In this document: positions 29,273 through 40,075 of the stretch, in pieces
Position numbering within the stretch: position 1 is the first letter of the stretch
Layout: the number at the start of each line of letters is the position of its first letter
DNA from: Dehalococcoidia bacterium
GTDB taxonomy: Bacteria > Chloroflexota > Dehalococcoidia > UBA6926
Length of the DNA stretch: 64,000 bases
NCBI GenBank assembly: GCA_965207895.1
Contig: CBDBNN010000002.1
Location: 92,498 to 156,497, forward strand
Reading direction: 5' to 3'
The notes under the pieces: model-generated
What the model was told of the DNA's origin: nothing
Seen by the model: only the letters and a program-made list of their open reading frames with translations
The model's database searches: none
Program-made: the position numbers and the translations under genes

Positions 29273-29503
29273 TCAGGAGGCTTCGCGCTTGATTTCCAGG
29301 CTCTCGCCGGGGGCGAGCGCAACGCGCTTGACGGTGAGATTCATCTTGAGGAGCCAGTACCAGAGTGTGCCCTTGCTGATGCCGAGTTCCTCAGACATGC
29401 CGGGCAATCCAAGTTCGTTGTACATTTCAGGCAAAAGCCGCTCCAAGGGGCGCCCATAGCGCTCCTCAACCTGCTTCATCAGCTTGGTTTTTCCGCGTGC
29501 CAT
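29273..29503 (-). CDS. Small putative HTH DNA-binding protein
   Basis: 76 aa with GLPGMSEELGISKGTLWYWL (HTH-like); SD GGAGG and its own promoter. Confidence 0.7.
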   Translation of the reverse strand: MARGKTKLMKQVEERYGRPLERLLPEMYNELGLPGMSEELGISKGTLWYWLLKMNLTVKRVALAPGESLEIKREAS

Positions 29504-29523: not shown

Positions 29524-29619
29524 AGTCTATTCGCGCAGGAGCGGAAATGTCAAGTATTCCAAGACCAGTTTCAAACCCGGTCTAAAGACTTGACAGATTC
29601 GATATGACGTCAGTACGAT
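29524..29619. promoter_or_regulatory. Back-to-back sigma70 promoters for the HTH gene (-) and the aroF leader (+)
   Basis: Plus strand: TTGACA 29590-29595-N18-TACGAT 29614-29619. Minus strand: TTGACA 29553-29548-N18-TAGACT 29529-29524. Confidence 0.6.
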
Positions 29620-29628
29620 TTTGGCGTG

Positions 29629-29703
29629 ATGTTTGGCGCCGGCTATCGCTATTACGACTTTAGCTACCCCCTGCGGGGTGGGTCGCCGGCTTCGCTCGTC
29701 TGA
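29629..29703 (+). CDS. Tyr/Phe-rich leader peptide of the aroF attenuator
   Basis: MFGAGYRYYDFSYPLRGGSPASLV* contains 4 Tyr and 2 Phe in the first 13 codons. Confidence 0.75.
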   Translation: MFGAGYRYYDFSYPLRGGSPASLV

Positions 29704-29729
29704 TTGACGCGCATAGTAAGGAACAAGGC

Positions 29730-29759
29730 AAAGCCCCCCCGCATTAGTGGGGGGGCTTT
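29730..29759 (+). terminator. Attenuator terminator hairpin upstream of aroF
   Basis: AAAGCCCCCCCGC-ATTA-GTGGGGGGGCTTT followed by CCGTTATT. Confidence 0.8.
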
Positions 29760-29817
29760 CCGTTATTGGGAACGGTGAAGAGGGCATTGGCCGCGTGGCC
29801 GGAGGAAAGCACACGCA

Positions 29818-30840
29818 ATGATCGTCGTAATGCGAACTGACGCAACACAAGAAAACGTGGACGGCGTTGTCGAAAAGATCCAGGAACTTGGCTATCGGGC
29901 GGACGTGGAGCCCGGCGAGTTCACCAGTGTTGTTGCCGTCATCGGTGACACGACAGCAGGTGGCGACGACGTCCTGAGAATCCTGCCGGGTGTGGATCAC
30001 GTGGTCCGCATCATGAAGCCGTACAAGCATGTGAGCCGCGATTTTCGAAAGAGGGATACCGTTATCGATTTGCCAAATGGCGTGAAAATCGGCCCGAACG
30101 CGCCGGTGGCCATGATGGTAGGGCCGTGCGCAGTGGAGTCCGAGGAGCAGGTACGGCAGGTTGCCGAGATGGATCAGAAACTCGGCTTCAGCATTCTTCG
30201 CGGCGGCGCTTTCAAGCCACGCACCTCGCCGTACACATTCCAGGGGCTGGGCCTTGAGGGGCTGCGCATCCTGAGAAGCGTCGCCGATGAGTACGGTCTG
30301 ATGGTCATCACCGAAGTGATGTCCGAGATGGACGTGGAAATGTGCGAGGAGTACTCGGACATCCTCCAGATTGGCGCTCGCACCATGCACGCGTTCCGGC
30401 TGCTGAAGACCGTCGGACAAACGCGCAAGCCTGTATTGCTGAAGCGCGGATTCCACGCCACGATCCGCGAGTGGCTCCTGAGCGCTGAGTACATCATCAG
30501 CGAGGGCAATTGGAACGTCATCATGTGTGAGCGCGGCATCCGCAGCTTTGACGATGAGTTCTCACGGAACGTCCTTGACCTGACTGCCGTGCAAATCCTT
30601 AAGAGGGAGAGCCACCTGCCAGTTGTTGTTGATCCCAGCCACGGCACGGGTGAACGTGACTTGGTAATGCCGATGGCAAAGGCTGCCATCGCAGCAGGGG
30701 CGGACGGGCTTATCATCGAAGCACACCCGGACCCCACGACGGCGCTTTCTGACGGAGCACAGTCGCTGCCAGTGGATTGGCTGCCGGAATTGCAGAAACA
30801 GGTCAACGATATTGCCAAGGCAATCGGACGGGAGGTCTAG
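29818..30840 (+). CDS. aroF: DAHP synthase, class I-beta with N-terminal ferredoxin-like regulatory domain
   Basis: GPCAVES, RGGAFKPRTSPYTFQG, QIGARTM, PVLLKRG, CERGIRSF, DPSHGTG, EAHPDP..ALSDG. Confidence 0.95.
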   Translation: MIVVMRTDATQENVDGVVEKIQELGYRADVEPGEFTSVVAVIGDTTAGGDDVLRILPGVDHVVRIMKPYKHVSRDFRKRDTVIDLPNGVKIGPNAPVAMMVGPCAVESEEQVRQVAEMDQKLGFSILRGGAFKPRTSPYTFQGLGLEGLRILRSVADEYGLMVITEVMSEMDVEMCEEYSDILQIGARTMHAFRLLKTVGQTRKPVLLKRGFHATIREWLLSAEYIISEGNWNVIMCERGIRSFDDEFSRNVLDLTAVQILKRESHLPVVVDPSHGTGERDLVMPMAKAAIAAGADGLIIEAHPDPTTALSDGAQSLPVDWLPELQKQVNDIAKAIGREV

Positions 30841-30933
30841 GGCCACGGAGTCTCAGCATTCTTCCCTGCGCCTGCAATGACACGGCACAGGACATGACGC
30901 GAGAAGGCAGTGGTCAGTAGAATGCGTAGCAAC

Positions 30934-31020
30934 GGCAGGATGGCGGAGTGGACAAACGCACCAGGCTGTAAACTTGGCGCCCTAAGGGCTACGGGGGTTC
31001 GAATCCCTCTCCTGCCACCA
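30934..31020 (+). tRNA. tRNA-Tyr(GTA)
   Basis: GGCAGGATGGCGGAGTGGACAAACGCACCAGGCTGTAAACTTGGCGCCCTAAGGGCTACGGGGGTTCGAATCCCTCTCCTGCCACCA; long variable arm, encoded CCA. Confidence 0.95.
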
Positions 31021-37981: not shown

Positions 37982-37994
37982 CGACACTGCTACG

Positions 37995-38240
37995 AAGGGG
38001 AGTAGTAGCGCAAGTCTAGCGGAAAGCGAGCCGGGGATGGTGGAAGCCCGGTCGTGATGACCCGTGAACTCGCCCCGGAGCATCCGAAACGCGGTCTCCG
38101 TCGGCAGGATGGAGACAATTGCGTTTTGGCGGGGTCGCGCCCGAACAAACGTTATTGAGAGACTCGGCCAAGACGCCGGGTAAGGAGGGTGGTACCGCGG
38201 GATCGCGAAAGCTCCCGTCCCTTCACGGGACGGGTTTTTT
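37995..38240 (+). ncRNA. T-box riboswitch with Leu (CUC) specifier
   Basis: Stem I AG/GNUG boxes (GCGGAAAG..GATGGTGGAAG), specifier GAA-CTC at 38069-38071, T-box AAGGAGGGTGGTACCGCG 38182-38199, terminator CCCGTCCC-TTCAC-GGGACGGG-T6 38214-38240. Confidence 0.9.
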
Positions 38241-38350: not shown

Positions 38351-40075
38351 ATGATGTCAGGCAGGATGCTGGCGGGCGGAGAGTTTGTATGCGAGTCGCT
38401 GCAAGCGGAGGGCGTCGACCTCGTTTTCGGCGTTCCCGGCGGCGCGATTCTGCCGCTCTACGACCACATACTGAAGTACCCGTCCATTCACCATGTCCTG
38501 ACACGCCATGAGCAGGGCGCGGCGCACGCGGCGGACGGCTATGCCCGGGCCACGGGCAAGGTGGGCGTCTGCATTGCAACGTCCGGCCCCGGCGCAATCA
38601 ATCTCGCCGTCGGGCTTGGAACATCGTTCATGGACTCCACGCCCATCGTGGCGATCACGGGGCAGGTGACGCGGCCCGCCATCGGCAAGGACGCCTTCCA
38701 GGAGACGGACGTGACGGGCGTGACGATTCCCGTCACCAAGCACAATTACCTGGTTCTCAGCGCAACCGATATTCCGCGCGTGATGAAAGAAGCGTTCCAT
38801 ATCGCGCGGTCGGCGCGCCCGGGTCCCGTGCTCGTGGATCTGCCGCGCGACGTGCTGCAGGAGTTCGGTGAGTTCATCGGCTATCCGGAGACCGTCGACG
38901 ACCTGCCCGGATTCAGGCCGATCACCCACCCGGACCCGATACAAGTAGAGGCTGCTGCCGAGCTAATCAACTCGGCAAAGAGGCCGGTGATTCTTGCGGG
39001 GCGGGGCGTGTTGGTAGCCCAGGCTGAGAAGGAGCTGCAGGAACTGGCCGAGAAGGCGCAGATCCCCGTCATCCCTACCCTGCTCGGCATTGGCTCGTTC
39101 CCGGGCAATCACTACCTGTACCTGAGCCTCATGGGGATGCACGGGTCTGCATTTGCCAACCTCGTGGTGGACGAGTGCGACCTGTTGGTCAACGTGGGGT
39201 CGCGGTTTGACGACCGCATCATCGGGCGGGTGGCGGACTTTGCGCCGAACGCGAAGATCGTGCACCTGAACATTGACCGCTCCGCGATCCATCAGAACGT
39301 TTTCGCGGATGCGCCCGTGATCGGTGACGCGAAGAATTCGCTCAAGGCGTTGCTGCCGCAAGTTGACAAGCAGACAAGAACGGAATGGCTCTCGCGCGTA
39401 GACGACCTGCGCCGCGAGCATCCGCTAGTCGTTCGAGATTTCGACGGCAAGCCGTCGACGCAATACGTCATCAAGCGCATCCATGAGCTGACAGACGGCA
39501 AGGCCTTCATCGTGACCGGCGTCGGCCAGCACCAGATGTGGGCGGCGCAGCACTATGTCACGGACAGGCCAAACAGTTTCATCACGTCCGGCGGCCTTGG
39601 CACGATGGGCTACGAAGTTCCCGCCGCGATGGGCGCTCAAATGGGCATGCCGAATGAGCAGGTGTGGTCGATCTGCGGCGACGCCGGTTTCCAGATGACG
39701 CTGCAGGAACTCGCGACAATCCGTGACGAGAAGGCACCCGTCAAGTTCGCGATTATGAACAACTTCCACCATGGCATGGTGAGGCAATGGCAGACGCTGT
39801 TTTACGACAAGCGTTACAGCCAGATCGATACAACAGGACCGGACTTCGTCAAGCTGGCGGAGGCGTACGGGATGCTTGGCATCCGTGTCGAGGACATCAA
39901 GGACGTGGACTCCGCCATCAAGCGGGCGCAGGATCATGACGGCCCGGTCATCGTCGATTTCCTTGTCGAGATTGATGAGTTGGTGTACCCGATGATTCCG
40001 GCCGGTCAGTCCGTGAACGAGATGGTGGAGGATCCGTGGACGCAGCAGCAGCCATTGGGGACGGTGGCGCGATGA
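38351..40075 (+). CDS. ilvB: Acetolactate synthase large subunit
   Basis: FGVPGGAILP, TRHEQGAAHAADGYAR, FQETD, SGGLGTMG, GDAGFQM...NNFHHGMVRQWQ. Confidence 0.97.
   Translation: MMSGRMLAGGEFVCESLQAEGVDLVFGVPGGAILPLYDHILKYPSIHHVLTRHEQGAAHAADGYARATGKVGVCIATSGPGAINLAVGLGTSFMDSTPIVAITGQVTRPAIGKDAFQETDVTGVTIPVTKHNYLVLSATDIPRVMKEAFHIARSARPGPVLVDLPRDVLQEFGEFIGYPETVDDLPGFRPITHPDPIQVEAAAELINSAKRPVILAGRGVLVAQAEKELQELAEKAQIPVIPTLLGIGSFPGNHYLYLSLMGMHGSAFANLVVDECDLLVNVGSRFDDRIIGRVADFAPNAKIVHLNIDRSAIHQNVFADAPVIGDAKNSLKALLPQVDKQTRTEWLSRVDDLRREHPLVVRDFDGKPSTQYVIKRIHELTDGKAFIVTGVGQHQMWAAQHYVTDRPNSFITSGGLGTMGYEVPAAMGAQMGMPNEQVWSICGDAGFQMTLQELATIRDEKAPVKFAIMNNFHHGMVRQWQTLFYDKRYSQIDTTGPDFVKLAEAYGMLGIRVEDIKDVDSAIKRAQDHDGPVIVDFLVEIDELVYPMIPAGQSVNEMVEDPWTQQQPLGTVAR

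Follow-up and report, generated by a model that had tools for sequence, protein, structure and literature searches.

The region directly upstream of aroF, the DAHP synthase gene, is very probably a ribosome-mediated (leader-peptide) transcription attenuator, for which the transcription start site, the translation of a short ORF and the response to Tyr and Phe are predicted from the sequence. It lies in a window of 64,000 nucleotides (the whole stretch of DNA that was analyzed) from a genome of the class Dehalococcoidia. The original prediction of such an attenuator before aroF gained support from conservation of the leader in relatives, from synonymous changes in its Tyr codons and from a switch of the RNA fold when a stalled ribosome was represented by a mask. 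The features discussed below are as follows, with positions counted in the window.

29590–29619, + strand: sigma-70-type promoter TTGACA-N18-TACGAT (promoter scan, 10/12 consensus matches)
29626–29703, + strand: leader ORF, GTG 29626 or ATG 29629 to TGA 29701–29703, encoding (M)MFGAGYRYYDFSYPLRGGSPASLV (ORF translation; predicted, probably leaderless, no Shine-Dalgarno sequence)
29635–29693, + strand: predicted anti-antiterminator (P0 plus P1), which would sequester the G-rich strand (consensus fold, pair counts)
29644–29667, + strand: putative regulatory codon cluster Y6-R-Y8-Y9-D-F11-S-Y13 (codon table of 20 distinct genus ORFs)
29672–29683, + strand: G-rich switch strand UGCGGGGUGGGU, predicted antiterminator 5΄ strand (folding, pair counts)
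29694–29712, + strand: small hairpin GCUCGUC / GACGCGC with the leader stop codon in its loop (consensus fold)
29730–29767, + strand: predicted intrinsic terminator AAAGCCCCCCCGC-ATTA-GTGGGGGGGCTTT with tail CCGTTATT (folding, consensus fold)
29733–29743, + strand: predicted antiterminator 3΄ strand GCCCCCCCGCA, overlapping the terminator 5΄ arm (folding, pair counts)
29818–30840, + strand: aroF, type I-beta DAHP synthase with an N-terminal ferredoxin-like regulatory domain, the candidate regulated gene (Pfam DAHP_synth_1 and DAHP_snth_FXD)

Promoter, leader ORF and terminator before aroF

We compared the 1500 nt upstream of aroF in 24 genomes from the family to which the window belongs, which fall into three genus-level groups, and in three more family-level genomes (27 in total). 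The relatives retrieved are metagenome-assembled genomes of Dehalococcoidia (Chloroflexota), and to judge from their isolate names (SB0661_bin, APA_bin and Plut, for example), several of them may come from sponges or corals. No cultured representative was found among the relatives retrieved, so that the regulatory signals are readable from sequence only. The aroF identity within the family is 74–98% over full-length matches. A promoter, a mini-ORF lacking a Shine-Dalgarno sequence and a terminator precede aroF in all 27 family-level genomes.

The predicted promoter was present, with the –35 hexamer TTGACA at positions 29590–29595, an 18-nt spacer and the –10 box TACGAT at positions 29614–29619; it is near-consensus, and the scan found three such sites in 3 kb, compared with 0.8 expected. 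TTGACA is kept in 26 of the 27 family-level relatives (L055 has TTGACG), and the –10 box in the genus of the window (g1) is TA[CG]GAT. The GTG at 29626 lies 6 nt past the end of the –10 box and the ATG at 29629 lies 9 nt past it, with no Shine-Dalgarno sequence between the –10 box and either codon. The spacing from the –10 box to the ATG is 4–10 nt across all three genera. Because the first in-frame start codon, (G/A)TG, is found 7 nt past the –10 box in the genus of the window, the leader transcript is probably exactly leaderless there. Leaderless initiation would, however, be favoured less by a GUG 5΄ end or a 3-nt leader, which a transcript starting at GTG 29626 would have, than by a 5΄ AUG.

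The leader has as its upstream neighbour a small gene that is divergently transcribed from its own back-to-back promoter. This gene (positions 29273–29503) encodes 76 amino acids without a Pfam match and does not adjoin aroF in the other two genera; the –35 element of its minus-strand promoter occupies 29548–29553, back to back with the leader –35 element at 29590. A conserved inverted repeat, GGTTTCAAACC, is located between the two promoters within AGACC..GGTCT (approximately 29563–29584), and may be an operator.

The ORF that had been described from ATG 29629 to TGA 29701–29703 was found in full; it comprises 24 codons and encodes MFGAGYRYYDFSYPLRGGSPASLV, with a GTG in frame at 29626. Tyr or Phe is specified by six of the 24 codons, five of which lie within eight codons, and these two amino acids account for 5.5% of the residues in the long ORFs of the genome. 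At this composition, the binomial probability of at least six Tyr or Phe codons in 24 is 0.0015, and that of at least five in eight is 2e-5. We also assembled 6087 ATG-started ORFs of 18–32 amino acids from all six frames genome-wide, and only two of them, the aroF leader included, reached at least five Tyr and Phe per eight-residue segment. A second Tyr/Phe-rich mini-ORF (C1:8795) was rejected as spurious, being antisense to a 664-aa ORF and beside a poly-G run.

Codon usage was tabulated for the 20 distinct 24-codon leader ORFs in the genus of the window. Position 6 is Tyr in all of them (TAT 16, TAC 4) and position 11 is invariably Phe (20/20), while position 9 is Tyr in 19 (TAC 14, TAT 5) and position 8 is Tyr in 18 and Phe in one more. 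Position 13, Tyr in 15 of the 20, is the least conserved of the cluster, and position 10 is replaced by Tyr in three. The Tyr codons show only synonymous TAT/TAC changes, and the peptide beyond the Tyr/Phe core varies freely. Of 21 distinct genus sequences, 20 have their stop codon at the same position, codon 25, with varying identity (TGA 16, TAA 3, TAG 1). Codons 6–12 do not belong to the consensus helices and lie mostly inside the P0/P1 fold described below, although the edges of this stretch are paired in a single-sequence fold. Their conservation is therefore not readily accounted for by base pairing. As far as the compared ORFs can tell, the synonymous Tyr changes and the fixed frame and stop position show that the leader ORF is selected at the codon level, and we infer that it is translated. 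Sensing in the genus of the window would be Tyr-dominant (Y6, Y8 and Y9 plus F11), which refines the dual Tyr and Phe sensing proposed before; the amino-acid response itself is predicted from these codons.

Between the leader ORF and aroF lies the predicted intrinsic terminator, and no promoter-like site was found by the scan in the 58 nt that separate it from aroF (29760–29817). The hairpin had been placed at 29730–29759 and was recovered there with a T-rich tail; its arms, AAAGCCCCCCCGC (29730–29742) and GTGGGGGGGCTTT (29747–29759), flank the loop ATTA and form 13 bp with a folding energy of approximately –29 kcal/mol. The helix is 97% paired across the genus. Because the upstream neighbour is divergently transcribed from its own promoter, this hairpin cannot be its terminator. 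In the window, the T-run of the tail is interrupted (CTTTCCGTTATT); genera g2 and g3 have tails of T6–T7. Perfect GC-rich hairpins with tails comparable to that of the window (TCTTTATT, CTTTCATT, TTTCGTTT) follow 88 long ORFs of this genome, 10–80 nt past the stop codon, and gene-end hairpins of the same kind, of the type AAAGCCCC..GGGGCTTT, also occur in other Dehalococcoidia families.

Along its full length, the aroF product matches the Thermotoga maritima DAHP synthase (1RZM/3PG9; E = 4e-103). A search of the 92%-complete genome for DAHP synthases gave this single type I-beta copy and none of type II. The gene itself starts from a clear GGAGG Shine-Dalgarno sequence (29801–29805), and the distance from this sequence to the ATG is 12 nt in the genus of the window, which is unusually long. 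A palindromic hairpin, GGCC-GCGT-GGCC (29789–29805), abuts the Shine-Dalgarno sequence; the form GGCC-N3-4-GGCC, with variable loops, occurs in most genus members and is absent in L008 and L009.

Alternative RNA structures and their conservation

We computed a consensus fold with RNAalifold from 22 genus sequences (alignment A1), and obtained P0, P1, the stop-codon hairpin and the terminator. The outer helix P0 pairs positions 29635–29647, corresponding to codons 3–7 of the ORF, with positions 29681–29693, and the inner hairpin P1 pairs 29665–29670 with 29675–29680. The hairpin originally described, ACCCC-CTGC-GGGGT at 29666–29679, exists, and is refined here as the inner part of this longer anti-antiterminator. 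The 5΄ strand of P0 is inside the leader ORF and the 5΄ arm of P1 begins 4 nt after the F11 codon, so that the 5΄ strand of the predicted anti-antiterminator would be covered by a ribosome that stalls at these codons. The three helices (two in P0 and one in P1) are 91–100% paired over 21 distinct sequences, and four pairs have changed on both sides. Divergent members also have the stop-codon hairpin, but its sequence differs there (L020, for example, has CCGG-UUAA-CCGG). The fold of the whole leader had a z-score of –3.4 and was better than those of all 200 shuffled sequences.

In the terminator state, standard pairs accounted for 95.9% of the cells in the helices, compared with 43–55% when the partners were slid by 1–3 columns. 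Double changes were found in five pairs (eight cells), and none of 500 shuffles reached the covariation score or the percentage of paired cells. The antiterminator that had been proposed is formed by UGCGGGGUGGGU and GCCCCCCCGCA over 11 bp with one bulge, UGCGGGG(U)GGGU with GCCC-CCCCGCA, and is mutually exclusive with the terminator. The pairing holds across the genus, with 93.9% of cells paired over the 11 pairs compared with 50–67% for the slid controls, which remain this high because G- and C-runs pair promiscuously. One of the pairs (64/135) appears as G-C (14), G-U (2) and A-U (1). However, covariation specific to the antiterminator was weak, with double changes in two pairs and the observed values reached by 29–51 of 500 shuffles, because most stem positions are invariant G-C within the genus.

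To represent a stalled ribosome, we hid the RNA from the 5΄ end to 11 nt past the Tyr or Phe codon in the A site, and cut the RNA before the terminator 3΄ arm. With the mask at any codon from Y6 to F11, the antiterminator formed in all 22 genus sequences and in representatives of both other genera. A mask at Y13 covers part of the G-rich strand, and weakened the antiterminator from –34 to –17 kcal/mol, which fits Y13 being the least conserved Tyr. Within this folding model, the switch between terminator and antiterminator is shown to be thermodynamically feasible.

The check proposed earlier, on conservation of Tyr/Phe codons upstream of aroF orthologues, had a clear outcome: a Tyr/Phe cluster in a short upstream ORF is kept in 27 of 27 family-level relatives. 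Most leader peptides in the genus of the window have the form M[IF]GAGYRYYDFSYPLRGG.., and its deeper branches have MASRGYRYYAFRRPPWGG.., MTTGALQYPGYYAFRRPERGG.. and MVARDYRDYSFRRPRRGG..; another example from the family is MRLYDFKEYFIYYCRESAGVVVV. The low-GC genus has M[RK][LV]YD[FL]KEYFIYY[CR]RES.., and the third genus has ..DAYPDFAFIYARSIGV.. and ..TGFAFIYPRFVGV... The strands of the switch have diverged along with the peptides: P1 of the low-GC genus is UUACUACUGCAGA/UCUGCGGGAGUGG and its antiterminator pairs CGGGAG(U)GGU with ACC-CUCCCG, and the third genus pairs GGGGUGGG with CCCGCCCC. In each of the three genera, the last Tyr codon (UAC) marks the start of the P1 5΄ arm. Despite divergent sequence and length, the distance between promoter and ATG, the Tyr/Phe cluster, the G-rich strand with its two C-rich partners and the terminator are kept. 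The relation between genera rests on this common architecture and on short motifs (TTTA[GT][CT]TAC and GGGGTGGG), not on a full alignment.

A covariance model of the leader (R1) was searched over 301 Dehalococcoidia genomes. Strong matches (95–176 bits) were confined to the genus of the window, where each genome had one, always at aroF; accordingly, the leader is not a dispersed repeat. Matches of 20–32 bits in other families were ordinary gene-end terminators of the AAAGCCCC..GGGGCTTT type and were rejected as attenuators.

Proposed mechanism and alternative explanations

We propose a transcription start that coincides with the leader start codon or is at most 3 nt away from it. A ribosome would thus need no Shine-Dalgarno sequence to load on the 5΄ end, and could load once this end emerges. 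When charged Tyr-tRNA and Phe-tRNA are ample, the ribosome would cross the 24 codons to the stop codon at 29701, and the G-rich strand (29672–29683) would re-pair behind it with the C-rich strands of the ORF, forming P1, and then P0 after the ribosome leaves. With the G-rich strand captured, the terminator (29730–29759) would form and RNA polymerase would stop before aroF. When either charged tRNA is scarce, the ribosome would stall at codons 6–11 (29644–29661), and its footprint would cover the 5΄ strands of P0 and P1 and leave the G-rich strand free. Because the stalled ribosome would hold the C-rich partners of the G-rich strand, that strand could pair with positions 29733–43 once they are transcribed, and polymerase would read into aroF. 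If no ribosome loads at all, P0 and P1 would form, and termination would be the default.

The same terminator/antiterminator switch might be run instead by an RNA-binding protein, an uncharged tRNA or a small ligand, with the Tyr/Phe codons being incidental. Alternative RNA structures alone would permit such control, and tRNA-sensing T-boxes precede trpE and ilvB in the same genome. However, no Rfam family was detected at the aroF leader at the gathering level, a search for the T-box (RF00230) between 29400 and 29900 gave no match at E ≤ 10, and the leader has neither a specifier loop nor conserved T-box sequence. What is conserved between the helices is codon identity with synonymous variation and a fixed frame and stop codon, a pattern that an RNA-only ligand site would not yield, and the Tyr/Phe richness has outlived sequence divergence in three genera. 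We regard control of this kind as quite unlikely. Matches to rnk_pseudo, Phe_leader and Thr_leader (RF00506) were also rejected, because they scored 15–30 bits against a threshold of 55 and were centred on the terminator hairpin, on either strand.

It is very unlikely that control acts through translation or mRNA stability, that is, that leader translation alters access to the aroF ribosome binding site or the half-life of the mRNA and that the predicted terminator hairpin is a stabiliser. The GGCC-N4-GGCC hairpin abutting the aroF Shine-Dalgarno sequence is conserved, and the tail of the predicted terminator in the genus of the window is not a clean U-run, both of which would be in keeping with such control. 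Yet hairpins of the same type with a broken T tail end ordinary genes in this genome, and the tails of the other two genera, g2 and g3, are runs of T6–T7. Nor is there a conserved pairing between the leader and the Shine-Dalgarno sequence: we dropped a pairing of the terminator tail (GCUUUCC) with the Shine-Dalgarno region (GGAAAGC), since the CUUUCC/GGAAAG complementarity is lost in relatives.

The leader is least of all expected to be an independent small gene for a small protein or sRNA, with aroF expressed from a separate unrecognised promoter or by constitutive read-through: its promoter, ORF and terminator do make a complete short transcription unit, and trans-acting attenuator RNAs and leader peptides (rnTrpL/peTrpL) are known from Sinorhizobium (PMC7298713), but the 58 nt before aroF hold no promoter-like site, the element adjoins aroF on its 5΄ side in every case, also where the gene before it is a different one, the peptide is free to vary beyond its Tyr/Phe core, and a stable product would leave unexplained both the overlap of antiterminator and terminator and the location of Tyr/Phe codons one ribosome footprint before the switch strand.

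Gene context and relation to known systems

We examined the leader-peptide attenuator proposed here in the context of the neighbouring genes. Downstream of aroF are tRNA-Tyr(GTA), a B3/4-domain-TyrRS fusion and pheA. A promoter-like sequence, ATGACG-N18-TAGAAT (30894–30923), is located just upstream of tRNA-Tyr (30934–31020), so that the part comprising tRNA-Tyr, tyrS and pheA may have its own promoter in addition to read-through from aroF. In six other Dehalococcoidia families, a chorismate-mutase-like ORF directly precedes aroF (identified as CM_1 by Pfam in three, with trpA upstream in two), and no Tyr/Phe leader was found directly before aroF in these six families. Genomes L025, L026 and L028 are examples in which aroF comes right after an aroH-type chorismate mutase. 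In the genome of the window, trpA and aroH are together on contig C1:166089–167289 without aroF.

These arrangements raise the possibility, to which we assign about an even chance, that this family has rewired how entry into the shikimate pathway is controlled. The sole aroF would have left a trpA-aroH-aroF arrangement for a Tyr/Phe block (aroF, tRNA-Tyr, tyrS with an editing-type domain and pheA) and gained a leaderless Tyr/Phe leader, and trpE would have kept a T-box. Thermotoga-type DAHP synthases are feedback-inhibited by Tyr and Phe via the N-terminal domain. If this inhibition holds here, the enzyme and its mRNA would answer to the same two amino acids, and the trpE T-box would sense the Trp branch. 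If the rewiring reading is true, the sole DAHP synthase would be tuned twice by Tyr and Phe, allosterically and transcriptionally, and Trp would be sensed only at its own branch.

In total, two T-boxes are present in the genome. One of them, at 37983–38225 in the window and upstream of ilvB (38351–40075) and ilvN, confirms the side claim of a T-box for ilv-leu in this genome; it scored 89 bits, just below the Rfam gathering score of 93, and is for that reason missing from the gathering-level scan. The other precedes trpE (C3:701633–701926, 106 bits), and its promoter, TTGACA-N17-TAGGAT-TTTGG, shares the form of the aroF leader promoter. Like the trpE and ilvB T-boxes, which have this promoter form in common with it, the aroF leader would sense the supply of aminoacyl-tRNA and choose between terminator and antiterminator. 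In contrast, T-boxes read uncharged tRNA directly and need no translation, and the aroF leader is without T-box features. This small genome thus combines T-boxes with a predicted leaderless leader peptide.

In function and layout, the known system that comes closest is the aroR-aroF attenuator of Corynebacterium glutamicum. According to the summary of Neshat et al. 2014 given in PMC11802643, aroR encodes a Phe-Tyr-Phe leader peptide upstream of the aroF operon, and aroF transcription rises under Phe limitation, with Tyr availability being without effect. Because the C. glutamicum element responds to Phe and not Tyr limitation, dual sensing cannot be assumed here. Leader peptides for trpE, leuA, ilvB and aroF of C. 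glutamicum were detected by RNA-seq (PMC3890552). The two systems are alike in having a short Phe/Tyr leader peptide directly upstream of the DAHP synthase gene, and the logic by which ribosome stalling raises downstream transcription in C. glutamicum is also that proposed for the Dehalococcoidia leader. However, C. glutamicum belongs to the Actinomycetota and its peptide has Phe-Tyr-Phe, whereas the leader described here, from the class Dehalococcoidia of the Chloroflexota, has a Tyr-dominant Y-x-Y-Y-x-F-x-Y. The Dehalococcoidia enzyme also differs in being a Thermotoga-type I-beta DAHP synthase with a ferredoxin-like regulatory domain and the sole DAHP synthase in the genome. The likeness is known in function and layout only, and the Dehalococcoidia leader likely originated independently of aroR. 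Actinobacterial leader peptides of the aroR type are often encoded on leaderless transcripts.

The proposed 1:2, 2:3 and 3:4 hairpins, the codons one footprint before the switch strand and the intrinsic terminator resemble those of the enterobacterial pheL-pheA and trpL-trpE attenuators. The enterobacterial family itself, however, is not a match, since the Rfam Phe_leader model (RF01859), whose gathering score is 55, reached 20 bits, and this on the opposite strand. Enterobacterial leaders start from a Shine-Dalgarno sequence, whereas the aroF leader is predicted to be leaderless; the anti-antiterminator predicted for aroF consists, unlike theirs, of two helical parts, P0 and P1, that enclose the regulatory codons; and their targets are in terminal branches, whereas the Dehalococcoidia target is the entry enzyme of the pathway.

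We found no report linking Dehalococcoidia with leader-peptide attenuation in the searchable literature, and one leader-gene paper names Chloroflexi only as a group with too few genomes for analysis. The mechanism is a textbook one and the combination of gene and codons is already known from C. glutamicum; what the aroF leader adds is a clear and comparatively well-supported predicted leader-peptide attenuator for the Chloroflexota (Dehalococcoidia), with a defined uORF of the kind that annotation pipelines miss.

A scan of the whole genome for units consisting of a leaderless promoter, a mini-ORF and a terminator revealed no amino-acid attenuator besides the aroF leader. Just one further unit had a strong terminator immediately before a gene; it has an 8-codon ORF and precedes an rpoB-like gene. 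This unit, outside the window at C2:264768 (+ strand), has TTGACG-N17-TAGTAT followed after 6 nt by the ATG of an ORF encoding MLGWTSTR, and a terminator of –25 kcal/mol with tail TTTTTCTG. It lies 30 nt before the gene, and because the product of that gene, which starts MVATMRESIKNYSRVDEILAPPNLIQIQVDSF, is RpoB-like, the unit may be an rpoB leader or attenuator.
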